This document shows, piece after piece, positions 1 to 43,793 of a stretch of 64,000 nucleotides of DNA. Origin of the DNA: Bacteroidales bacterium (GTDB taxonomy: Bacteria > Bacteroidota > Bacteroidia > Bacteroidales > G3-4614). Position 1 is the stretch's first letter, and every line of letters begins with the position of its first letter. The notes under the pieces were generated by a model, which saw only the letters and a list, made by a program, of their open reading frames with translations, searched no databases and was not told where the DNA came from. The translations under genes and the position numbers were made by a program. The stretch spans positions 10,443-74,442 of the forward strand of contig JAFYPQ010000012.1 in assembly GCA_017559955.1 (NCBI GenBank), written 5' to 3'.

Positions 1-80
1 TTCTAAAATAGAATAGTAAACAAACATAGAATAAGGATATAAAAAGAAAGTGGAGAAAGTTGAAAAACTTTCTCCACTTT
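1..80 (+). repeat. Window-truncated copy of a paralogous structured intergenic element (E-element), ending in a perfect 14-bp stem / 6-nt loop hairpin (47-80)
   Basis: Bases 1-16 (ttctaaaatagaatag) align to 4926-4941 (ttcgaaaatagaacgt) and 25076-25091. The hairpin aaagtggagaaagt-tgaaaa-actttctccacttt is near-identical to the 25105-25127 hairpin. Confidence 0.6.
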
Positions 81-116
81 AGAAACTTTGGAGTATATTA
101 ACAAATAAGACATTAT

Positions 117-1253
117 TTATTCAAACAAAGAGAGGTATGAATGGCAGACAAAAAAACGATTACGGCTTTGCCCTGTTATTTCTTTTAATAAGTTGTCGTT
201 CACCATCATCTTGACCAATGTATTTGCCGAATTGTAGGTGATATTACATATTTTTGATGCTTCATCCACAGAGATGTAAGGATTTACTAATAATTTATGT
301 AATAAAATTATAGCATTTGTAGAACGACTTTTATATGTTGATCGTATTTTCTCTTCTGCCTCACTTTTAAATTGGAGTATTGAGGAAATAGTGTTTGCTG
401 TAGCTGATGCAGTTTGTTCAATACCAACTAAAAAGTATTTAATCCATTGTATCATATCGTTTTTAGTCCTTATAGAAGATAAATTATCATAATAAAGGTC
501 TTTGGGATTCTCGAAGAAAGTTGATAAATACAAGAGAGGTTTGTCTAATATTTTTTCTTTTACTAAAAATAGAGTAATTAGTAATCTGCCAATTCTCCCA
601 TTTCCGTCAAGGAAAGGGTGAATTGTTTCAAATTGATAGTGAGCTATTGCAATTTTAAGAAGCGCTGGCAATAAAATTTGGTCATTGTTAAGAAATTTCT
701 CAAGATCACTCATCAATGATCCAACTAATTCATGTGAAGGAGGTATGAATTTAGCATCTGCAAGAGATTTTCCTCCAATCCAATTTTGACTCTTCCTAAA
801 TTCTCCTGGGAGTTTGTGTTCCCCTCGTACACTATCAAGTAATAATTTGTGGGTGTTGCGTATTAAACGGCTTGAAATTGGTAACGTATCTAGACTATTT
901 ATAGCTTCATTAATAGCTTTTACATAGTTTTGAACCTCTTTCCAATCATTCCTGCGTTCTTCTTTAATCTCAGTTTCGGGTAGCAATGCTTCATCCATTC
1001 TTGTTTGAGTTCCTTCTATTCTGCTTGATACTACAGCTTCTTTAGTTACATGTAGTTGAATGAATAAATCAATATTAGGGACTAGTTTTGAAAATGAATT
1101 TAGTTCTCCTAACTTAAGAGCAGCTTTCTCTAAAAGATGATTTATAGAAGGATTATTCCAAATCCATTGATGGTTAATAGTATTTGGGACAAAATATTTA
1201 TAGCCATATCCATCTTCATAATGGCCTGCATTAAAATTATCAAGTTCAATCAT
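117..1253 (-). CDS. Fic family protein (class II, with N-terminal inhibitory motif and canonical AMPylation-type active site)
   Basis: Carries the HPFLDGNGRIGR motif (HxFx[DE]GNGRxxR) and an upstream SSRIEG match to the [ST]xxxE[GN] inhibitory helix. The ORF track starts at a TTG (1277), but a -7 box at 1275-1282 overlaps it, so the ATG at 1253 (MIELDNF) is preferred. Confidence 0.85.
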   Translation of the reverse strand: MIELDNFNAGHYEDGYGYKYFVPNTINHQWIWNNPSINHLLEKAALKLGELNSFSKLVPNIDLFIQLHVTKEAVVSSRIEGTQTRMDEALLPETEIKEERRNDWKEVQNYVKAINEAINSLDTLPISSRLIRNTHKLLLDSVRGEHKLPGEFRKSQNWIGGKSLADAKFIPPSHELVGSLMSDLEKFLNNDQILLPALLKIAIAHYQFETIHPFLDGNGRIGRLLITLFLVKEKILDKPLLYLSTFFENPKDLYYDNLSSIRTKNDMIQWIKYFLVGIEQTASATANTISSILQFKSEAEEKIRSTYKSRSTNAIILLHKLLVNPYISVDEASKICNITYNSANTLVKMMVNDNLLKEITGQSRNRFFVCHSYLSLFE

Positions 1254-1274
1254 GTAGGTTAAATTTATATTGAG

Positions 1275-1282
1275 CAAAATTA
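1275..1282 (-). promoter_or_regulatory. Bacteroidota -7 promoter box (TAATTTTG on minus strand) for the Fic gene
   Basis: Exact TAnnTTTG match 22 nt upstream of the ATG at 1253. Confidence 0.5.
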
Positions 1283-1554
1283 CAATAAAAAAATCACTAT
1301 CTCAAATTTTAATGTAAAATTGAGATAAAAGAAATCTTATTTCAATTTTAATCAATATAATGAAATAGACAATTCCTTATTTCAAAAATAGAATAATCTA
1401 TCAAATTTTCAAATATAATATATTCATTTCGTCAAATAAGTAGAAATACAAAATAGGTGCTTTTGCTTTATTATAGGTTTCCCTGAAGAATGACATACTA
1501 TAATTAAGAGGGTTGCATATATGACTGGTTCTTATCTATGACATCCTAATATAA

Positions 1555-1650
1555 ATTTAAAGTCTTAAATGCGAGATAAGCCTTGTGTAAATTCGTTAGA
1601 AATAAAAAAGCAAGGATGTAAAAAGAGAAATCAATAATAAAGAGCTCTCA
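1555..1650 (+). repeat. Degenerate copy of the E-element in the Fic/DUF2971 divergent intergenic region
   Basis: gcgagataag (1571-1580) matches gtgagataag (4901-4910), and attcgttaga (1591-1600) matches attcgttcga (4921-4930). The caagg block is conserved. There is no clean terminal hairpin. Confidence 0.5.
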
Positions 1651-1788
1651 AAATTTCAACAAAAACGTAAGAATATCAAATCTATTCAACTCCTTTTTTT
1701 GCCTTTTTAAAAGCATTTTAACATCTTTATATGATGAACTAGCAAAATATAATATTTGAATATACATTAAGAATATAATTAAATTTAT

Positions 1789-1796
1789 ATACATTT
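1789..1796 (+). promoter_or_regulatory. Bacteroidota -7 promoter box (TACATTTG) for the DUF2971 gene
   Basis: Exact TAnnTTTG match. It abuts the GTG used by the ORF track (1797), which argues for a downstream ATG start. Confidence 0.5.
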
Positions 1797-1811
1797 GTGC
1801 ATAATACTTAT

Positions 1812-2747
1812 ATGTGTGTTTATATGGAAATAAAAATAAAGGACAAAAATGTTAGAAATAATATATTTAAGTTTCTTGATTACATCCAAGAATACTTAAA
1901 AAAACCAAACATGTCCTCTGGATTATATCACTATACTTCAATAGAAGCTCTATACAACGGAATTATTCAACAGGATTGTAAGTTAGGTCAAGAAATATGT
2001 CTTCGTGCAACAAATGTTTTATACTTGAATGATAAAGAGGAAATAAAAATAGGAATCTCATTTATTGAGGATTTTATAGAAAAATATATTGTAAAGACAG
2101 AGGAAAAAAAATTATTCCAGTCTCAATCTGATTTTTTAGACTTTTGCTCTTCATTATTTGTAACATCTTTTTCCCTACAAAGAGATAATCTTCCTATGTG
2201 GAGAATGTATTCTACTAATGCAACAGGAATTGCATTATGTTTTGACGATAAATTCTTTCGAGAAAGTGATGAGGAGTATTACTTAAAATGTAATTATTCA
2301 ACATCAAAATTACGACAAGGAATAGATGAATATTTAAAAGAATTTAAAGCTATTCCCTCATCGAATGATAAAATAGCGTGTATATTTTTAATTATATTCC
2401 TTGCACTTTTAATTTCTAACAAAAAAGAAGAGATAAATTATGCTATTGAAAAAATGCTTCCGCTTATTAAATTTGCTTTTTCTCTTAAACATCCAGCATA
2501 TAATTATGAAGAAGAAATTCGTCTTTTAAAGCTATGTAGTAACAAGGAATACAGAAAATTTCGATATAAAGACAACTTGATTATACCTTATGTCGAACAT
2601 TTTTTCCCAAAGGAATCTTTAACAGAAATTATTGTCGGACCAAATAACGATATGCAAAGGACTATTCATTCTTTGAAAGTATACCTTAAACATCATGGTT
2701 TCGAACATGTAAATATTATAGAATCTAAACTTCCATATAGGAGTTAA
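1812..2747 (+). CDS. DUF2971 domain-containing protein
   Basis: N-terminal LYHYTSIEAL ... LRATNVLYLNDKEE and PMWRMYS motifs resemble the DUF2971 pattern as I remember it. The start is ambiguous (ATG at 1812 or 1824). The GTG at 1797 is rejected because of the promoter box. Confidence 0.6.
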   Translation: MCVYMEIKIKDKNVRNNIFKFLDYIQEYLKKPNMSSGLYHYTSIEALYNGIIQQDCKLGQEICLRATNVLYLNDKEEIKIGISFIEDFIEKYIVKTEEKKLFQSQSDFLDFCSSLFVTSFSLQRDNLPMWRMYSTNATGIALCFDDKFFRESDEEYYLKCNYSTSKLRQGIDEYLKEFKAIPSSNDKIACIFLIIFLALLISNKKEEINYAIEKMLPLIKFAFSLKHPAYNYEEEIRLLKLCSNKEYRKFRYKDNLIIPYVEHFFPKESLTEIIVGPNNDMQRTIHSLKVYLKHHGFEHVNIIESKLPYRS

Positions 2748-3195
2748 AACTTTTAACTATTCATATTTCGTATTCCAATAAAACACATTTCCTTTTATTT
2801 AATAATTAATAAATCTTTTTCAGAGATAAGAGAATTTGAGGGAATTACCAAAGAAAAGAATGTTGTTTTATTACCTATAAGATATTCAATTGAAGATTGG
2901 TTGTTAACAGATATAGAAGGCTTCTATAAATATCTTCTCATAAAGAATAAACCTCTTAAATTATCAGATAAAAATGGATATGATAAATAAACCATTGATT
3001 TAAGCAACATTAGAAGATGTTTATAAAAAGGCTTTGATTGTAAGATATCATTAAAATCTTAATATAGCCATTATTATATCTGGGCATTCTGATGAACTAA
3101 AGCCTATTCGTTTAGTACTAAGGATAAAAGATATATAATAAAAATTATAGTAATAGATTGTAATTTCTATAGATATAAACTCTCCTTTTGTGTTG

Positions 3196-4017
3196 CTACT
3201 CTAATATCTTCTGGATTTCTTTTTCTTCAAATTTTAACAAATTATTTGTAACCTTCAGCAAAGTGACTTTATCTGAATGAATATTCCCCATTTTCAGAAT
3301 CCTTAAAGTACATGTTTCCTCTAATTCTTGAAATGTACATTTTGAGTTTAGTTTAATATCCAAGTTTTTTAGAAAAGTGCTAGGTGCTACGTCTGGATTA
3401 ATTTTACCTAGTTCTTCAAGTCGCTTTATTGACCCTTTTATATATTGAAAAACATCATTACCTTGAGAAATAGTAGTTTTTATTCCGCAAATCAGTATTA
3501 AATCATTTATATACTCACCATATTGCTTCAATATATTTCTGTAACAGTCAATGTATTCTATTTCACATTCATTAAAATTGTCTTCAGGTAAATACATATC
3601 AAAACTATAACCCTGCATCTCAATATCCTTGTTTAAATTCATTAGATAATCCAATGCGATCTGACAATTACCATTTGTAATATTATTTATCGCGATAGAG
3701 GTTTCTTGGAAGTTAAGAATGCGATAATTTATATCTAATTGTTTCCTTAACCCCTCTAACCAAGTCTGTCTGGCTTGATACTTGAGAATCTTGTTTTGAT
3801 TTTTTCTACTGTCTTCATTATCTTCTTTATTCCAGACTCTTGTACGATATAGTACAAACATTGTAATGATGGAGCCCAAAAGAGTTCCATAAAATCCTAA
3901 CCAACCATCAATACTCCCATTAACAATAGCCCCTACAGATACTCCCAAGATTATATAATTAATCAAAATTGGGGAACTTAATAACAAAACTAAAACAAAC
4001 CAATCTAATTTTTTCAT
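3196..4017 (-). CDS. Hypothetical membrane protein with two N-terminal TM helices and a roughly 200 aa soluble C-terminal domain
   Basis: MKKLDWFVLVLLLSSPILINYIILGV and WLGFYGTLLGSIITMFVLY are hydrophobic helices. A -7 box at 4044-4051 supports the ATG at 4017 rather than the ORF-track start at 4176. I recognise no family. Confidence 0.6.
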   Translation of the reverse strand: MKKLDWFVLVLLLSSPILINYIILGVSVGAIVNGSIDGWLGFYGTLLGSIITMFVLYRTRVWNKEDNEDSRKNQNKILKYQARQTWLEGLRKQLDINYRILNFQETSIAINNITNGNCQIALDYLMNLNKDIEMQGYSFDMYLPEDNFNECEIEYIDCYRNILKQYGEYINDLILICGIKTTISQGNDVFQYIKGSIKRLEELGKINPDVAPSTFLKNLDIKLNSKCTFQELEETCTLRILKMGNIHSDKVTLLKVTNNLLKFEEKEIQKILE

Positions 4018-4043
4018 TTTATATTCATGTTGTCTATTATTCA

Positions 4044-4051
4044 CAAAGGTA
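4044..4051 (-). promoter_or_regulatory. -7 promoter box (TACCTTTG on minus strand) for the 2-TM protein gene
   Basis: Exact TAnnTTTG match 27 nt upstream of the ATG at 4017. Confidence 0.5.
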
Positions 4052-4091
4052 TAAGTTATTTTGTATTTATTCTTATTATAAAATAAATAAT

Positions 4092-4099
4092 TACCTTTG
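4092..4099 (+). promoter_or_regulatory. -7 promoter box (TACCTTTG) for the SDR gene
   Basis: Exact TAnnTTTG match 37 nt upstream of the ATG at 4136. Confidence 0.5.
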
Positions 4100-4135
4100 T
4101 AGGTATTACAATTTATGAGAGCAAAATAGACAAAT

Positions 4136-4849
4136 ATGAATATTCTTATTATTGGAGGAACATCGGGAATAGGCAAAGCCCTTTATGATAAATATATTGT
4201 GAAGAATAATCAGGTTGCAGTTATCGGAAGAAGAACTGATATACTCGATAAATTGCTTAGAGATAATCCTCTCAATACTATTATTGCTACGGCAGATATA
4301 ACAATTCAATCCGAAATAGATAATGCAATTGAATCCATTTGTAAAAAGCTAAACAAAATAGATTTAGCCATTGTATGTTCGGGCATTGGTGAAATTAATT
4401 CTTCACTTAAATATTCAATTGAACTACCTACTATAAGTACAAATGTAACAGGTTGGACTTTTTGTGTTGATAAACTTTATAATATTTTCAATAATCAAGG
4501 ATATGGCCATTTTGTTGCGATAACCTCAGTTGGTGGATTACGAGGAGAACCAATGTCGCCTGCATATAGTGCATCAAAAGCATATCAAATTAATTATATA
4601 GAAGCATTGCGTAAAAAGTCTTTTAAAACAGGAAGTAAAATAGTAGTAACAGATGTCCGCCCAGGACTTGTTAATACTGCTATGGCGAAAGGAGAAGGGT
4701 TATTTTGGGTAATGCATGTAGAAAAAGTTGCTCAACAAATTTGCAATGCCATTCGTAAGAAAAAGTCCAAAGTTTATGTAACTAAACGTTGGCACATACT
4801 TGCTATAATTAATAAGATATTACCATTTTGGTTATATAAAAGAATCTAA
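4136..4849 (+). CDS. SDR family oxidoreductase (short-chain dehydrogenase/reductase)
   Basis: GGTSGIGKAL glycine-rich NAD(P)-binding motif at the N-terminus and the YSASK catalytic YxxxK motif. Confidence 0.85.
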   Translation: MNILIIGGTSGIGKALYDKYIVKNNQVAVIGRRTDILDKLLRDNPLNTIIATADITIQSEIDNAIESICKKLNKIDLAIVCSGIGEINSSLKYSIELPTISTNVTGWTFCVDKLYNIFNNQGYGHFVAITSVGGLRGEPMSPAYSASKAYQINYIEALRKKSFKTGSKIVVTDVRPGLVNTAMAKGEGLFWVMHVEKVAQQICNAIRKKKSKVYVTKRWHILAIINKILPFWLYKRI

Positions 4850-4877
4850 TGTACAAGTAGTATTTACTGGGTCAGGA

Positions 4878-4984
4878 ACAATGGTTCTTAATTCCCAAAG
4901 GTGAGATAAGTCTCTTAGAAATTCGTTCGAAAATAGAACGTCAAGGGGTACTAAGAGAAGTTCGAAAGAGCTTCTCTTTTTTTG
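4878..4984 (+). repeat. Best-preserved copy of the E-element (candidate small RNA or 3'UTR element) with an intrinsic terminator
   Basis: It has an inner hairpin cgttc-gaaaata-gaacg (4924-4940). An outer 8-bp pairing joins tctcttag (4911-4918) to ctaagaga (4951-4958). A terminal stem joins aagagaag to cttctctt (4953-4978) and is followed by a T-run. The element aligns without gaps to 25045-25110. Confidence 0.6.
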
Positions 4985-5054
4985 TTTGTATATCTTTCCT
5001 TTTTTTGAAATAAATCACTAACTTGCGGTAGTAATTTATATGCCTGATAACTTT

Positions 5055-5330
5055 ATGACAAAGAAACAATCTTTACAGATATTTGAAGATAAAAAAGTTC
5101 GTACTGTATGGGATAGCGAACAAGAAAAGTGGTACTTTTCAGTTGTAGATACAATTGAAATATTGACTGAACAAAGTAGCCATCAAGGAGCAAGAAATTA
5201 TTGGAAGGTTCTAAAAAATCGTTTAAGGAAAGACGGAAATGAAACGGTTACAAATTGTAACCGTTTGAAACTGCAGGCAGAAGATGGCAAAATGCGTTTA
5301 ACAATTCAAGAGCAACCAATTTCTTATTAG
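5055..5330 (+). pseudogene. Truncated Bro-N/KilA-N-type DNA-binding protein (N-terminal fragment only)
   Basis: MTKKQSLQIFEDKKVRTVWDSEQEKWYFSVVD...NETVTNCNRLKLQAEDGKMRLT matches the N-terminal part of a longer Bacteroidales Bro-N family protein as I recall it. Similarity ends near 5310 and is followed by 8 unrelated codons and a stop. Confidence 0.55.
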
Positions 5331-5420
5331 AATCAACAGAGGATGCGGAATAGGAGATAGGAATTTTACATCTTGCTTATGAACTTACATTAATCATTAA
5401 TTATTGGTGTCCGATAATAA

Positions 5421-6464: not shown

Positions 6465-7796
6465 CTACTCAATATATAATTTTTCAACATTTAAAGAACT
6501 CTTGTCTTCGGTAAAATCGCCCAAAAGTACTCTCACTCCGCTTTTATTTACCAGGCTCCTATCATATGGCATTTCAACTCTTATGTAGTTATCGGTAAAA
6601 CCATGCATCATTGTCCCGGGAGCAGGTTGTTCAAATAGCACAGGACGGGTTGCTCCTCGTTGCGATTTATAAAATGCCAAACGCTTCTCTTCTGACAAGG
6701 CAAGCATTTGGGTACATCTATCGTGTTTCTCCTGAGGAGTAACAACGTGTTCTATTTTCAGAGCTCTTGTGCCAGGACGCTCAGAGTATGTAAATACGTG
6801 AAGTTGAGAAATATCCAAACTTTCGACTGTCGCAAAACTTTCATTAAAGAGTTCTTCTGTTTCTCCTCGCATTCCAACAATTAAATCGACTCCTATAAAA
6901 GCATCGGGCATAACAGATTTAATTTTATTGATTTTTGAACAGAACAAAGCCTTGTCGTAATGACGACGCATTATTTTAAGCACTTCATCACTTCCAGATT
7001 GCAATGGGATATGAAAGTGAGGAGCCATTCGTCTTGATGTTGCTATAAACTCAATTGCCTCGTCGGTTAGAAGGTCGGGTTCAATCGAAGATATTCTGTA
7101 TCTTTCGATACCCTCAACACAATCCAAAGCCTTTATCAGATCAAGGAATGTTTCTCCTGTTGTTTTCCCAAAATCTCCTATGTTAACTCCGGTTATAACA
7201 ATCTCTTTGCCCCCCTCTTCAGCAACCTGACGTGCCTGCTCCACCATCGACTCGATAGAACCATTTCTACTTCTTCCACGGGCAAAAGGAATGGTACAAT
7301 AAGAACAGTAATAGTCACAGCCATCTTGAACCTTTAAAAAATAGCGAGTACGATCGCCCCTCGAACAAGATGGAGCAAAATTCTTTATCTCTGCCAAAGG
7401 AGTTGTATCTACTAAATGGGTCTGCTCCGACATCAAGAATGCTTCTAACCTATCGGGTAAATCCATTTTTTCGGCAGCTCCCAAAACCATATCAACCCCC
7501 TCTATTGCCCCCACCTCTTCACTTTTAAGTTGAGCATAACACCCCGTTACAACAATACAAGCGTTTGGATGCTGACGAGAAATTCGACGAATTGTCTGCC
7601 TACATTTTTTATCGGCTAATTCGGTAACCGAGCAACTGTTTATAATGCAGATATCAGCCTTTTCGCCCGACTTGGTTTTTATCACTCCTCTTTGCGAGAG
7701 CATCTTGCCAATTGTCGAAGTTTCAGCAAAATTAAGCTTACATCCTAATGTATAATATACAACTTTCTTATTATTAAGTATTGAGTGTTCTGTCAT
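6465..7796 (-). CDS. mtaB: tRNA (N6-threonylcarbamoyladenosine(37)-C2)-methylthiotransferase MtaB (MiaB-like radical SAM)
   Basis: N-terminal YTLGCKLNFAE, radical-SAM CDYYCSYC (CxxxCxxC) motif and a TRAM-like C-terminus. The ATG at 7796 is preferred over 7808. Confidence 0.85.
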   Translation of the reverse strand: MTEHSILNNKKVVYYTLGCKLNFAETSTIGKMLSQRGVIKTKSGEKADICIINSCSVTELADKKCRQTIRRISRQHPNACIVVTGCYAQLKSEEVGAIEGVDMVLGAAEKMDLPDRLEAFLMSEQTHLVDTTPLAEIKNFAPSCSRGDRTRYFLKVQDGCDYYCSYCTIPFARGRSRNGSIESMVEQARQVAEEGGKEIVITGVNIGDFGKTTGETFLDLIKALDCVEGIERYRISSIEPDLLTDEAIEFIATSRRMAPHFHIPLQSGSDEVLKIMRRHYDKALFCSKINKIKSVMPDAFIGVDLIVGMRGETEELFNESFATVESLDISQLHVFTYSERPGTRALKIEHVVTPQEKHDRCTQMLALSEEKRLAFYKSQRGATRPVLFEQPAPGTMMHGFTDNYIRVEMPYDRSLVNKSGVRVLLGDFTEDKSSLNVEKLYIE

Positions 7797-10333: not shown

Positions 10334-10395
10334 GGATAAATTCCTTATTTTTGCAAAAAAAACATAAAAACACTATTTATTTCAAAAAATAGTAT

Positions 10396-10403
10396 TAACT
10401 TTG
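10396..10403 (+). promoter_or_regulatory. -7 promoter box (TAACTTTG) for the small lipoprotein gene
   Basis: Exact TAnnTTTG match 65 nt upstream of the ATG at 10468. Confidence 0.45.
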
Positions 10404-10467
10404 CAATGCTTTTGAAACATAAAGCAATAAATAAATTTATTATTTTAAATATTTAAAATTACGAGAA

Positions 10468-10671
10468 ATGAAAAAATTAGTTTTATTTGCAGCTGTTGCT
10501 TTCGCTGCTTCTTTCGCAGCTTGTAGCTCACAACCTGCAGCTGAGGAGGCTACTGAGGCTCCTGTAAGCACTGAGGCTACAATCGATGCTAACTATGCAT
10601 TCGAAGGCGATACTCTTCTTCTTCCTAACGCAGAAGAGACTGCTATCGACACAGTAGTTATTGCTGATTAA
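10468..10671 (+). CDS. Small acidic lipoprotein (67 aa)
   Basis: Signal peptide with lipobox SFAAC, a mature part rich in A/E/T, its own promoter box and a strong terminator. Confidence 0.65.
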   Translation: MKKLVLFAAVAFAASFAACSSQPAAEEATEAPVSTEATIDANYAFEGDTLLLPNAEETAIDTVVIAD

Positions 10672-10694
10672 TTTTAGCAAGCGAAGAAAAAAGA

Positions 10695-10721
10695 AAGCGA
10701 TACCAAGTATCGCTTTTTTTT
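10695..10721 (+). terminator. Intrinsic terminator of the small lipoprotein gene
   Basis: aagcgata-ccaag-tatcgctt 8-bp stem followed by T8. Confidence 0.8.
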
Positions 10722-10902
10722 ATGCCTTATTCTTAGCAGGAAGACTAAAAAATATTATTTTGAATGAACAATATATCCTATAAGGTTGTTATAATAGAAT
10801 TACAACAGACTATAAAATGGGATATATAAGATTTTGAAAACACCCGTAGAAGTATGTAGGAACGGGATTTTGTGCATTTTGGTGCATTTTTTTGAGGCAT
10901 AT

Positions 10903-10948: not shown

Positions 10949-11035
10949 CGGAAAGAGGGGGATTCGAACCCCCGGTACCCTTACGAGTACGACAGTTTAG
11001 CAAACTGTTGGTTTCAGCCACTCACCCATCCTTCC
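10949..11035 (-). tRNA. tRNA-Ser (anticodon GCT), class II with long variable arm
   Basis: The reverse complement folds as a cloverleaf. Acceptor GGAAGGA/TCTTTCC, anticodon arm ACAGT-TTGCTAA-ACTGT, T-arm GGGGG-TTCGAAT-CCCCC. CCA is not encoded. Confidence 0.95.
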
Positions 11036-22368: not shown

Positions 22369-22857
22369 TTAACGTAAGTTCGATATAATATTAGAATAAA
22401 TAAAGTTGTCCGTCGTTATAAATTTCAAATCAATGGCGGGTTTCTTTTCAAAGAAACAATATGCAGCAATAGCACTCAAAGCATTTGCAATAAAGTTATT
22501 AAACGAGCGATGACGAGAATGTTCAATTTGGGCAATAATTTTAAGTTGTCATTTACTGTTTAATATAAGTGCACGTTTTCTTAAACAAATGTCAGTAAAA
22601 TTCATAAGCGAGTTTTTCATATTATTCTTGACCTTGGTAAACAACTGAATACCATCAATAAAAAGGTTCTCTGTCATCAACCTCACCGGTTGTAAAACGA
22701 AATTCAAGATTTCGTCTTTATCGTTGATAATCAAATGGAGCTTGAAGCCAAAGAACCACCCTATAGAACATTTACCATAATTGGCAAAACCTTCAAAAGT
22801 TTTGTGAATATGTTGGTTACAACGATGACACTTGCCGTCATCAGGTGTTGAAAGCAT
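22369..22857 (-). pseudogene. IS982 family transposase pseudogene (internal deletion plus in-frame TGA at 22549-22551)
   Basis: GKCSIGWFFGFKLHLIINDKDEIL DDE region. After the in-frame stop, QLKIIAQIEHSRHRSFNNF carries the IEHSRHRS signature of IS982. The N-terminal ADEFCTFF segment upstream is out of context, consistent with a deletion of about 300 bp. Confidence 0.8.
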
Positions 22858-23060
22858 ATATTTTTCTTGTTGTGCATTAAAAAAGGTGCAGAATTCATCT
22901 GCTAAATAAAAAGTTTATGTAATTTTACCCTCAGAGAACATAGCGGTAAGAGTTTGTCGTTGTTCTTTGTGTTCTTAAATTTACAACTATTATCGCTATT
23001 CTCCTAATTTTTAAAGGGTTAATTAAAAATATTTTTAATTCCTTATATCGAACTCACGTT
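22371..23060 (-). mobile_element. Decayed IS982 family insertion sequence (about 690 bp, internally deleted)
   Basis: Terminal inverted repeats aacgtaagttcgatataa (22371-22388) and ttatatcgaactcacgtt (23043-23060) match at 17 of 18 positions. The interior encodes broken IS982-type transposase segments. Confidence 0.8.
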
Positions 23061-23074
23061 GAAATATAACTTTT

Positions 23075-25012
23075 ATGAAACGAATATTTTTACTTCTTGC
23101 TATTATTAGCCTTCTATCATCATGTTCTAAAAACAGCAATAAATCTATCGAACATATTGATTTTGACTTTGCAAACAACGAGAGACCGAGAGACTTGGAA
23201 AGATTAGAATATGATGATGATGGCTATCTGATTAAACGTATTTGGTATTCAAACGTTAAATTAGAATGGAAAGTTGTTTATAGCTACAATTCTGATGGTA
23301 TTAGAACAGGTAGAGTAAAATACAACTCCCTTGGAGATGTATTAGAAAGTCAGAAATATGATATAAACAATAAAAGTAATAAGGCGGAGGCAGAAGTAAA
23401 AACTAAAATAGAACCTAAATCTGTAAAAGAGACAGATTCTGAGGGAAATATAATTTTGGAGGCTGAGTATGATGAATACGGCGACTTAACAACCAAAGCT
23501 ACATATGAATATGATATAGATGGACATTGTGTTAAGGCAGAATATTATGACAAATATAATATATATTATACAATAAAATATAATCCTGAAGGATATATAA
23601 TTGAAGAGTTAAATTATAACCATAGAGGAAATTTATTATCAAAAATAATCTATAACTATTACCCTGATGAGAATAGAACAGAATGGGTGGGATATGACTC
23701 TTATGGCAAGCTTATCGAAAGGTATCTATTTACTTACAATCTATCAGGAAGCATATTAGAGTGTAAGGGCTATAGATCTGACGGCGAATTAGAGTATAAA
23801 ACAAAATCGGTTAATGACGCTAATGGGAATAGAATTGATTATGAACTTATGTGCTATTACGAAGAGCCAAACTCAGAGAAGTGGTTATTTAAATATGATT
23901 CAGACAGAAATATAATAGAAGAAGCAAATTATAGTTTCTGCGAGAACGAATGGAGCATAAACAATACATACAAGTATAAATATGATGCTAATGGGAATAG
24001 AATTGAGGTGAGTACATATAATCCTGAAGGGATTATGTTGGGGAAGACTACTACTAAATATGACTCTTTTAGAAATATAATTGAAAAAATAGTGTATGGC
24101 TCAGATGGAAAAATTGACAATAAATATATAACAAAATATAATTCTGAGGGAAATAAAAAAGAAACCGCAAAATCATTCATTAGAGACGGCAATAAATATA
24201 CTGAAACAACACGTAAGTTTAACTCTAAAGGCAAAATAATAGAATCTGTATCTTACAAAGGAGGGAAGTTAATCAAAAAGTTCATTGCAACGTGTAATTC
24301 TGAAGATGAGATAATTGAAACCTCTGAGTCGGAATACAATAATGGGAAATTAGTGAAAGAGAATATATGCAAATATAACTCAGCTGGCATAAAAACAGAA
24401 TCAGCATCGTATGGACTTGAAGGTGTATTGTATAATAAATATGTATCAAAATGGAACTCTCAAGGGAATATGACAGAAGAGTGTGAATATGGAAACGGAG
24501 AATATAAAGGGGAAGAGAGATACAAATACGATTCTGACGGAAATCTTATTGAGTGTGAATATTATAACTCTGACGGATATCTAAAGTTGATAAGTAAGTA
24601 TAATCCTCAAGGAGAATGTACCGAGGCTAAAAAATATGACAGTAACGGCAAATTACAAGAGATAGTAGTATATGAGTATGCCTTTATTGGAAACGAGATT
24701 GAAAAATGTGTTTATGATTCTATTGGTACCTTACAATACAAAACAAAGATTAAGACCTCAAATGGAGGCCAGAGAGAAATAATGAAAGAAATAGCAAATG
24801 GATTGGATGGGAAAGTAGGTTTTCTTTATAGTTTATTTGTTGGGGAAAATTCATTAAATGGAGAATACAATAAAAAAGAGTTGTATGCAATAAAATATGC
24901 ATTATCTGACAAAGTTTTAGAGAAAGGAGAATTACCTAAAAATGTAATGAATGAGTTAAGGGAGAGTAAAGATTTAGATAAAATAATAAATTACGGTTTT
25001 ACTGTTAAGTAA
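23075..25012 (+). CDS. YD-repeat-like lipoprotein (645 aa) with 25 or more tandem units of about 21-23 aa and a non-repeat C-terminal domain
   Basis: Lipobox LLSSCS. The recurring unit x-Y-[DN]-x-x-G-x-[IL]-x-E-x-x-x-Y is seen in YKYDANGNRIEVSTYNPEG and YKYDSDGNLIECEYYNSDG. No RHS core or toxin motif is seen. Confidence 0.7.
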   Translation: MKRIFLLLAIISLLSSCSKNSNKSIEHIDFDFANNERPRDLERLEYDDDGYLIKRIWYSNVKLEWKVVYSYNSDGIRTGRVKYNSLGDVLESQKYDINNKSNKAEAEVKTKIEPKSVKETDSEGNIILEAEYDEYGDLTTKATYEYDIDGHCVKAEYYDKYNIYYTIKYNPEGYIIEELNYNHRGNLLSKIIYNYYPDENRTEWVGYDSYGKLIERYLFTYNLSGSILECKGYRSDGELEYKTKSVNDANGNRIDYELMCYYEEPNSEKWLFKYDSDRNIIEEANYSFCENEWSINNTYKYKYDANGNRIEVSTYNPEGIMLGKTTTKYDSFRNIIEKIVYGSDGKIDNKYITKYNSEGNKKETAKSFIRDGNKYTETTRKFNSKGKIIESVSYKGGKLIKKFIATCNSEDEIIETSESEYNNGKLVKENICKYNSAGIKTESASYGLEGVLYNKYVSKWNSQGNMTEECEYGNGEYKGEERYKYDSDGNLIECEYYNSDGYLKLISKYNPQGECTEAKKYDSNGKLQEIVVYEYAFIGNEIEKCVYDSIGTLQYKTKIKTSNGGQREIMKEIANGLDGKVGFLYSLFVGENSLNGEYNKKELYAIKYALSDKVLEKGELPKNVMNELRESKDLDKIINYGFTVK

Positions 25013-25027
25013 TGATAATGCCATTAT

Positions 25028-25134
25028 TGAAAATGGTTTAATCCCCAAAGGCATGATAAGTCTCTTAAAAATTTGTTCGGAAACAGAACAATTAGGGATA
25101 CCACGGAGAGAGTTGAAAACTTTCTCCATTTTTT
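25028..25134 (+). repeat. Second full copy of the E-element with an intrinsic terminator
   Basis: 25045-25110 aligns without gaps to 4895-4960 at roughly 70% identity by eye. The inner hairpin is tgttc-ggaaaca-gaaca (25074-25090). The terminal hairpin ggagagagt/actttctcc (25105-25127) is followed by T6. Confidence 0.6.
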
Positions 25135-25165
25135 AGACACTATCCATAATTTTGTGTAAATAGAG

Positions 25166-25200
25166 ATTACAGGGTTCAGTATGAACCTTGTAATTTTTTT
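25166..25200 (+). terminator. Second intrinsic terminator-like hairpin downstream of the E-element
   Basis: attacagggttca-gta-tgaaccttgtaat 13-bp stem (one G-U pair) followed by T7. Confidence 0.6.
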
Positions 25201-25292
25201 ATTTAATAGCATTGTTTAAAAAGCAAGATGAGAAGGATAACTATGCTTACTCTATATTGCTAATAACTTTTCCGTGAGAGTCAGCGAGGAAT

Positions 25293-43618: not shown

Positions 43619-43692
43619 TCTTCAGTAGCTCAGTCGGTTAGAGCATCTGACTGTTAATCAGAGGGTCGTTGGTTCAAGTCCAACCTGAAGAG
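43619..43692 (+). tRNA. tRNA-Asn (anticodon GTT), copy 1
   Basis: Acceptor TCTTCAG/CTGAAGA, anticodon loop CTGTTAA and T-arm GTTGG-TTCAAGT-CCAAC. Confidence 0.95.
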
Positions 43693-43719: not shown

Positions 43720-43793
43720 TCTTCAGTAGCTCAGTCGGTTAGAGCATCTGACTGTTAATCAGAGGGTCGTTGGTTCAAGTCCAACCTGAAGAG
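43720..43793 (+). tRNA. tRNA-Asn (anticodon GTT), copy 2 (identical tandem duplicate)
   Basis: Sequence identical to 43619-43692, separated by a 27-nt AT-rich spacer. Confidence 0.95.

Follow-up and report, generated by a model that had tools for sequence, protein, structure and literature searches.

The locus considered here, a stretch of 64,000 nt (the window) from contig JAFYPQ010000012.1 of a Bacteroidales bacterium, raises the question of what a short non-coding element, called E below, is doing in several copies among accessory genes. An earlier note on this DNA had offered three options: a paralogous small RNA (sRNA), a module of 3' untranslated regions (3'UTRs) travelling with accessory genes, or the conserved end of a mobile cassette. 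The last option gained support and can be made more specific. With a probability of roughly 70%, E is the island-side attachment-site arm of gut Bacteroidales islands that insert at the 3' end of tRNA-Leu, and not a free-standing sRNA family. The copies in the window most likely mark the seams between accessory-gene cassettes.

The two full plus-strand copies described in the earlier note were recovered by a core pattern, by an nhmmer profile and by a covariance model. The 25-nt degenerate core GATAAGYCTCTTARAAATTYGTTCG matched exactly at 4905-4929 and 25055-25079 in a scan of the window (0 matches expected in shuffles), and a looser core pattern added a third match at 1575-1602. The nhmmer profile, built from 12 copies of E, scored 115 bits at 4862-4984 (E-value 2e-34) and 80 bits at 25015-25134 (E-value 1e-23), and reached an E-value of only 0.005 at 1562-1602. 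The covariance model R1 (109 nt, built from 24 copies), run over the whole window with filters off, scored 117 bits at 4843-4951 (E-value 1e-21), 82 bits at 24993-25101 and 26 bits at 1512-1621 (E-value 0.0025), with no further significant match anywhere in the window. By R1 score the window copies form a series of graded decay, from 117 over 82 to 26 bits and down to a remnant. A core-only fragment proposed at 1371-1398 was picked up neither by nhmmer nor by the covariance model. An ungapped alignment of 4895-4960 with 25045-25110 gave 74% identity (49 of 66 positions), slightly above the 70% first estimated by eye.

The best-preserved copy, wA (4843-4951, plus strand), is a full one. It immediately follows the stop codon of an SDR gene, ends in CGTTCGAAAATAGAACGTCAAGGGGTAC and is 88-98% identical to E copies in other Bacteroidales loci. 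Its last six nucleotides, GGGTAC (4946-4951), form a short identity with the 3' end of tRNA-Leu and are the putative crossover region. The inner hairpin of wA (cgttc-gaaaata-gaacg, 4924-4940) contains GTTCGA, a candidate zinc-ribbon-domain motif of an attP left half-site. Downstream of wA the terminator scan found a hairpin and a T-run, followed by GTTTGTATATCT (4953-4996, plus strand); the same sequence stands after tRNA-Leu(CAA) in a sister strain. It recurs after each E copy of the cassette array described below, and the strains diverge beyond 4996. The wA-type junction also contains an imperfect 15-nt dyad, 4917-4931 with 4961-4975, centred on 4946.

The second copy, wB (24993-25101, plus strand), lies behind an RHS-repeat gene and is truncated at its 5' end. 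The view that 4878-4984 and 25028-25134 are copies of the same element holds for the shared core but not for the 5' parts, which differ; an analysis of the 5' boundary placed wB in the family only from about 25037. The RHS-plus-E unit recurs in loci L004 and L013. The core of wB is mutated to GGGATAC (25095-25101), and its terminator (25105-25134, plus strand) is of the island-borne type (GGAGAGAGTTGAAAACTTTCTCC, compared with GGGGAAAGTTGAAAAACTTTCC in the islands). Both full copies end in a hairpin with a T-run, as had been noticed, and the hairpins at 47-80 and 25105-25127 are indeed nearly identical. The two remaining copies are older-looking. The one first placed at 1555-1650 (1512-1621, plus strand, by R1 and the core pattern) is real yet decayed, carries the shared GATAAGNCTNNNNNAAATTYGTTNGRAA and lies between a Fic cassette and a cassette of DUF2971, a gene of unknown function and SDR. 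The window edge cuts through the other copy, of which a decayed 3' remainder is left at 1-80 (plus strand; TTCTAAAATAGAAT, AAGGATAT and a terminator at 47-80). Its intact 5' half is visible in the sister-strain locus L020 (6244-6388), where it is continuous with the sequence of window 1-80 (98.6% flank identity), confirming that a larger copy was cut here.

About 25 further distinct copies of E were recovered from Bacteroidales metagenome-assembled genomes (MAGs) and metagenomes. Scans with loose patterns yielded six loci from a genome collection and three real loci from metagenomes, all of them Bacteroidales MAGs or gut metagenomes; a further match in the metagenome collection (L010) was rejected as a chance hit. 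No match to E was found in viral contigs with two core patterns, nor by blastn in the PLSDB plasmids and INPHARED phages. All copies of E can be read through in one open frame, and a comparison of the translated window 4861-5010 with a protein collection returned 33 small 'hypothetical proteins' (P0001-P0033, 29-87 aa). They have only the 28 residues encoded by E in common and then diverge completely through the terminator. Judged from this pattern they are spurious open reading frames, that is, annotation artefacts translated from a non-coding element through its terminator. Their contigs supplied loci L011-L029, each frame marking a further copy of E.

In L005, L011, L015, L017, L019, L028 and L029, E marked one end of a recurring gene arrangement of 7-10 kb. 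This arrangement begins with a gene for a large serine recombinase of 480-550 aa (Resolvase, Recombinase and Zn_ribbon_recom domains), followed by a small resolvase, a protein of about 100 aa, WYL_2, a 64-aa protein, an HTH_3 regulator and variable, in many cases defence-like cargo, for example a Band_7_1/GYF_2 gene set, an N6_N4 methylase with a ResIII helicase, or a WG_beta_rep protein. After the cargo come genes for proteins of about 300 aa and about 63 aa on the opposite strand and then about 300 nt of conserved non-coding DNA, of which the last 95 nt or so are E. Complete islands with a shared backbone and both ends visible were found at L011 1-10200, L019 2030-10140, L028 1900-10200, L029 55-9420 and L005 189-7560. 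L015 holds a recombinase island with E whose left end is cut off, and L014 and L006 hold recombinase-less versions with the same two ends as the complete islands.

Wherever the recombinase end was present, ARAGORN called a tRNA-Leu gene there in plus orientation, with the anticodon CAA in L005, L006, L011, L014, L019, L020 and L028 and TAA in L029. At this end the tRNA gene ends in GGTTCGACCCCGGCTCTGGGTAC and is followed by a terminator conserved between islands (GCGGGGAAAGTTGAAAAACTTTCCTCGC) and then by the 3' end of the recombinase gene. At the far end E ends in CGTTCGAAAATAGAACGTCAAGGGGTAC (GGGGTAC) and is followed by a terminator that differs from locus to locus. In the five complete islands GGGTAC was the sole identity common to the tRNA-side and E-side junctions. 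A terminator of the wB type was also found 3' of tRNA-Leu at the recombinase end of L005, L011, L019, L028 and L029. As read from these sequences, the two-junction pattern is characteristic of an element that has integrated site-specifically into the tRNA-Leu 3' end. A terminator always follows E and is variable beside a conserved core because the terminators of tRNA and island swap on integration. The terminator, which had been taken as a sign of an sRNA, is thus that of the tRNA-Leu gene or of the island and does not speak for an sRNA gene.

The core of E (93 nt) was the best-conserved segment of the islands. Its mean identity of 94% compares with 90% for the recombinase gene, 74% for WYL_2 and 66% for HTH; parts other than the recombinase ranged from 56 to 85%. 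Short copies differ in their 5' limits (at about columns 13, 29, 50 and 55 of alignment A5), but all of them retain the 3' 53 nt beside the crossover. The combination of E, an island-type terminator and the first 25 nt or so of the island left end (TATTTAATCCTCGTAA) was also seen at L028 10087-10150, L004 about 6830-6890 and L003 about 285-340. Such an attP-like junction inside a chromosome suggests tandem or decayed islands. By its sequence, wB with its island-type terminator is likewise an attP-like configuration of the kind seen in L003, L004 and L028.

The sister strain L020, 98.6% identical over window 1-1629, contains in order tRNA-Leu(CAA), GGGTAC, a wA-type terminator with GTTTGTATATCTTTCC, a full-length Bro-N gene, an E copy, a Band_7/GYF cassette, the E copy that runs into window 1-80, Fic and a hybrid E copy. 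Window 4946-5140 is 94% identical to L020 1086-1278, and L020 has that sequence behind its tRNA-Leu(CAA). In this comparison of an occupied with an empty arrangement the breakpoint falls at GGGTAC. Since the post-tRNA sequence of L020 is found after 4843-4951 in the window, wA would be an attR-type junction. At the site of the 1512-1621 copy, L020 (7869-7973) has a hybrid E that joins the 5' part of the decayed copy to an intact wA-like 3' half, and it is without the 3.3-kb DUF2971-SDR cassette. L026, whose SDR is identical, follows the window no further than 4996, the end of the terminator with GTTTGTATATCT. In L013, which is 99% identical to the window over 17 kb, the 5' half of wB is joined after GATAAGTCTCTTA to a wA-like 3' half with its terminator; 3.1 kb of extra genes follow the hybrid copy before the sequence rejoins the window at 25263. 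Near-identical strains (98-99%) differ by whole cassettes, and the breakpoints lie inside E or at its end. The 3.2 kb that L013 has in place of window 25068-25262 encode a zinc-ribbon protein, two unknown proteins and an Rce1-like protease.

A likely explanation for the observed architecture, junction positions, strain differences and conservation lies in catalysis by the large serine recombinase. We infer that this enzyme would pair the 3' end of E (GTTCGAAAATAGAACGTCAAGGGGTAC, the putative attP left half) with the 3' end of the tRNA gene (GGTTCGACCCCGGCTCTGGGTAC, the putative attB left half). Strand exchange within the common GGGTAC would leave the tRNA intact and provide it with the island terminator, and E would gain the tRNA's old terminator. 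In the window, 4843-4996 would represent the attR-type junction that closes a tandem array of recombinase-less accessory cassettes, with 1-80 and 1512-1621 as older, decaying junctions of the same array, which is presumably headed by a tRNA-Leu(CAA) upstream of the window. A second variable locus would be marked by 24993-25134, the 5'-truncated attP-like copy behind the RHS gene. E copies also serve as recombination points at which strains gain, lose and swap cassettes; the cassettes would be mobilised either site-specifically, by a recombinase acting in trans, or by plain homologous recombination. The possibility that wA and wB are attL and attR of one 20-kb island was considered and rejected: the interval carries housekeeping genes such as MiaB, FeoB, RNase HII and MalQ, and the two copies therefore belong to two separate variable loci.

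Two features of the junctions have parallels in known serine-recombinase systems. From the start of GTTCGA to the end of GGGTAC there are 27 nt in E, where the motif lies inside the inner hairpin, and 22 nt in tRNA-Leu, where it lies in the T-arm. The attP of the LI integrase has its zinc-ribbon-domain motif 5 bp further from the centre than attB does (PMC3783163), and the outward shift of GTTCGA by 5 bp would fit such a relation. The very short identity at the junctions fits serine-recombinase elements as well, since integrative and mobilizable elements (IMEs) of this type have very short direct repeats (PMC5704250). A search by eye for a symmetrical motif in the right half-sites gave nothing convincing.

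Several points weigh against an attachment-site function of E. No large serine recombinase or other island core gene was detected in the window by tblastn, and no tRNA-Leu(CAA) was found there; the tRNA gene is presumed to lie upstream of the window start. wB is not adjacent to a tRNA-Leu(CAA). The putative involvement of a serine recombinase is read from the architecture, recombination itself being indicated indirectly by the attP-like junction in L028 and by the cassette differences between strains, and the shift of GTTCGA, which was noticed post hoc and concerns left half-sites only, is suggestive. About 25 bp are needed per serine-integrase half-site. In E about 95 nt are conserved, and about 300 nt in complete islands, a length so far beyond a half-site that attachment cannot account for all of the conservation. 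Helices tolerant of G·U pairs and a covarying pair (32/47) would not be predicted for a double-stranded DNA site. Moreover, in the recombinase-less cassettes the repeat unit consists of E, GGGTAC and some 45 nt, about 150 nt in total. A crossover between cassettes could fall anywhere in this repeat, and plain homologous recombination would be compatible with it.

The excess of conservation leads to the first alternative, namely that E is, or is also, a structured RNA that would regulate the island or its cargo. We regard this as possible, though distinctly the less probable view. Such an RNA could be the 3' domain of a transcript of about 350 nt in complete islands, and in the window a 3'UTR module or an sRNA derived from the mRNA of the upstream cassette, with its end at the terminator. 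The core of E is conserved above any island gene, and far beyond a 25-bp half-site. With a five-helix model, 85% of cells were paired in 24 distinct copies, compared with 33-51% when the partners were slid. The plus-strand helices are rich in G·U: pair 33/46 is G·U in 20 of the 24 copies, pair 59/69 is G·U in 12 and A-U in 11, and pair 32/47 covaries between A-U, G·U and G-C. Pairs that are G·U, or that alternate between A-U and G·U, would fit folding of the plus strand only. The stem pairs 83-86/94-97 of the inner hairpin are kept in all 24 copies. The earlier note had pointed to the closing pair of this hairpin, which changes from C-G to T-A between the two full copies. The change is real between wA and wB, but the pair (82/98) is poor evidence of covariation across the 24 copies, being CG in 13, UA in 2 and unpaired in 9. 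Helices 1 and 2 are absent from copies of the wB and 1555 types, and the covariation events are few and phylogenetically clustered in an alignment of limited variation.

The region upstream of E bears on the same question. In complete islands about 200 nt upstream of E are conserved (L005 7192-7430 and equivalents; columns 66-265 of alignment A4). This 5' domain of the long form contains a stem (A4 columns 152-164 with 184-199) with three compensatory pairs. The same stretch also contains a hairpin whose stem differs in L015, with the loop motif CCTAC unchanged. In 10 of 12 long copies a near-consensus Bacteroides -7 box, TA(T/G)GTTT(A/G), occupies a conserved position about 235-246 nt before the E core, but no TAnnTTTG was found in the 300 nt preceding wA, wB or the 1555 copy. 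Rfam 15 at gathering scores returned nothing but tRNAs from the window and nine loci, and in E-value mode the short and long forms of E gave chance-level matches only, so the comparison with Rfam suggested by the earlier note assigned E to no family. An intrinsic terminator always lies 3' of E; as explained above, the swap of tRNA and island terminators accounts for it. Short copies have different 5' limits but invariably retain the 3' 53 nt, and the old array copies decay, which is unlike an essential sRNA gene. Without an Rfam match, a -7 box near the window copies or a closing pair that survives in the wider family (broken in 9 of 24), the option of a paralogous sRNA is unsupported. A riboswitch or attenuator was also considered, as TCTCTTAG of wA could pair with the 5' half of the terminator, and it was rejected: the terminators of L002, L006 and L009 show no such complementarity.

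It is unlikely that E forms part of a single-strand-active origin, either a rolling-circle origin or an oriT, for the adjacent Rep_trans/gpII-like protein, with the window copies as inert leftovers. The genes for the proteins of about 300 aa lie divergently beside the long form (L011 8651-9511, L017 6613-7548 and L015 8428-9396, all on the minus strand). Relatives of Rep_trans act as relaxases and replication initiators of integrated elements (PMC5704250), and hairpins with compensatory changes would be expected in such origins. Three unrelated versions of the protein, with no mutual similarity by BLAST, adjoin the same non-coding stretch. They gave sub-threshold matches to Rep_trans (E-value 0.02 in three loci), to Phage_CRI (gpII; E-value 2.4e-4, 21.3 bits against a cut-off of 21.7) and to a PHROG 'replication protein' (6e-4), but every such match in Pfam, PHROGs and NCBIfam stayed below the curated threshold, and PDB sequence searches with these proteins returned nothing. 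The helices with G·U pairs form on the strand opposite to the sense strand of the rep gene, which in classical rolling-circle plasmids is not the displaced strand. No similarity of E to a plasmid or phage sequence was seen in PLSDB or INPHARED, and an origin would leave the retention of the 3' 53 nt beside GGGTAC unexplained. The adjacent proteins of 62-67 aa are mutually homologous and resemble a NUMOD3-type DNA-binding motif (weak PHROG match, homing endonuclease).

Still less likely is the idea that E is a folded single-stranded nucleic acid with a tRNA-T-arm-like 3' end, acting in or controlling recombination at tRNA-Leu. E with its terminator would then be an attC-like cassette end, and defence and toxin cassettes could be assembled and rearranged by a serine recombinase acting in trans, in an integron-like array at a tRNA gene of Bacteroidales. 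The folded form may be the island RNA of about 350 nt or single-stranded DNA made by the adjacent rolling-circle initiator.

The resemblance to tRNA could also be taken literally: E would then be a pseudogene, a degenerate copy of the target tRNA-Leu that the island captured and carries. We consider this very improbable. E and tRNA-Leu have GGGTAC and GTTCGA in common, a 5-bp stem with a 7-nt loop stands at the position of the T-arm, and AGATGG..CGG.AA resembles the 5' part of a tRNA. However, alignments of E with three tRNA-Leu genes scored no higher than shuffles (z from -0.4 to 1.65; 32-350 of 500 shuffles scored as well), neither ARAGORN nor the Rfam tRNA model called E, and E has no acceptor-stem complementarity. 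Finally, a fragment of an insertion sequence (IS) or of a miniature inverted-repeat transposable element (MITE), or a gene for a small protein, can be dismissed. The frame is open across all E copies, and gene prediction in metagenomes has derived the 33 small 'proteins' from it, but their agreement is confined to the 28 residues that E contributes. wA, L001 and L002 lack a start codon, and in L004 a 1-nt indel shifts the frame. In the inverted-repeat scan wA and wB showed internal hairpins and terminators but had no terminal inverted repeats in common, and E is not accompanied by a transposase. The earlier note had listed an internal IS or MITE segment among the findings that would overturn its proposal; E did not prove to be one.

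If E is an attachment-site arm, its closest functional analogues are the att sites of serine integrases, and its closest analogues within Bacteroidales are the islands NBU1 and MTnPi4. Like the att sites of large serine recombinases (A118/LI, Bxb1, phiC31, TndX of Tn4451, Ccr of SCCmec), E lies at the junction of an element encoding a protein with Resolvase, Recombinase and Zn_ribbon_recom domains. The junctions have only a very short identity in common, here GGGTAC, and the candidate outer motif GTTCGA, located 5 bp further out on the element side in the left half-sites, would recall the LI integrase (PMC3783163). Unlike these sites, E is conserved over about 95-300 nt and not over about 50 bp, and solo copies persist between recombinase-less cassettes; the system described here is known from its sequence alone. 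IMEs with serine recombinases typically disrupt a gene (PMC5704250), whereas these islands leave the tRNA 3' end intact.

NBU1 and MTnPi4 are described (table in PMC5704250; Shoemaker 1996 as cited in PMC5812530) as small mobilizable Bacteroidales islands located at the 3' end of tRNA-Leu, which is not destroyed. The target (here tRNA-Leu with the anticodon CAA or TAA) and its preservation are the same in the present islands. The enzymes are different, since NBU1 and MTnPi4 use a tyrosine integrase of the lambda family, which the present islands lack; these have a large serine recombinase and a small resolvase. The gene content (WYL_2, HTH, Rep_trans/gpII-like) is also different. The array resembles the tandem accretion of IMEs and integrative and conjugative elements into composites at tRNA genes (PMC5704250), with serial elements at one tRNA 3' end, chimeric att sites and decay of the older ones. 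It differs in that the units are only 1-4 kb long, are recombinase-less, carry one to a few accessory genes (Fic, Bro-N, the Band_7/GYF set, DUF2971-SDR) and, in the manner of cassettes, each end in the same 150-nt or so of E and terminator.

Integron cassettes come to mind as well, because a structured repeat of about 100 nt ends each short cassette and the content differs between near-identical strains. In contrast to integrons with their attC sites, neither an IntI tyrosine integrase (in the window patches and the islands) nor an attI was present, the cassette genes are in both orientations (Fic and the 326-aa gene are on the opposite strand), E has neither the R''/L''-L'/R' architecture nor a GTTRRRY core, and the array is anchored at a tRNA gene. 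Among RNAs, FopS and GibS are paralogous Bacteroides sRNAs, some derived from 3' ends, for which dissemination by mobile elements has been suggested (PMC11697453). E is similar to them in being a multicopy, conserved non-coding element of Bacteroidales with a terminator. FopS sRNAs are about 65-70 nt long, have canonical promoters and act on susC mRNAs through a 5' seed (PMC11697453). Compared by length, promoter and context, E is unlike them: it comprises about 95 nt plus the terminator, its window copies are without a promoter motif, and it is tied to island junctions.

The genes between the window copies are in keeping with accessory DNA. The two accessory patches are richer in A+T than the core of the window, with G+C contents of 29-31% as against 39%. 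The first (117-4849, 29%) consists of cassettes bounded by E copies and contains Fic/DOC (117-1277, minus strand), DUF2971 (1797-2747, plus strand), a gene for an unknown 326-aa protein (3196-4176, minus strand) and SDR (4136-4849, plus strand), as assigned with Pfam. Beside wA lies the remnant of a Bro-N-like gene (5040-5401, plus strand, 96 aa; PHROG, 7e-24). It is internally deleted: by blastn, window 5050-5140 and 5304-5401 match L020 and L022, and the middle of the gene is missing. The full-length gene (278 aa) is present in the sister strains L020, where it gave a Pfam match to Bro-N and stands behind tRNA-Leu(CAA), and L023. The second patch, upstream of wB (22549-25012, 31%), contains a fragment of a DDE_Tnp_1_3 transposase (22549-22857, minus strand, 102 aa, Pfam), probably an IS remnant, just upstream of the gene for the RHS-repeat protein (23075-25012, plus strand, Pfam).

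A few further observations may be recorded. A perfect terminator-like hairpin of 17 bp is located at window 25162-25198, between wB and a tRNA-Leu(TAG) gene. Two identical tandem tRNA genes (43619-43692 and 43720-43793; 73.7 bits each) lie 27 nt apart. The synteny of L003 and L002, from two related species, with the window (about 10385-10733) breaks near 10733, beside a tRNA gene at 10949-11035, and this may be another rearrangement hot spot. In L002, from a Candidatus Caccoplasma MAG, two E copies in direct orientation (2479-2606 and 4758-4885) are 2.1 kb apart. Between them, on the opposite strand, lie three small genes of unknown function, an arrangement that resembles a further single cassette.

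In a limited search of the literature no description of this island family or of E was found. A review of mobilizable islands associates the use of tRNA 3' ends with tyrosine integrases (PMC5704250, 2017); the islands described here, by contrast, combine a large serine recombinase with a tRNA 3' end. If this is confirmed, the recombinase and its sites of about 50 bp would provide a ready-made tool for site-specific integration in Bacteroidales. At the level of annotation, 33 database 'hypothetical proteins' can be flagged as translations of a non-coding element. The R1 model (109 nt), together with the rule that GGGTAC is common to E and tRNA-Leu, supplies a marker for cassette seams in uncultured gut Bacteroidales. 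With it a previously undescribed island family can now be located, which carries candidate defence, toxin and accessory genes such as Fic, RHS, Band_7/GYF and a methylase with a helicase.

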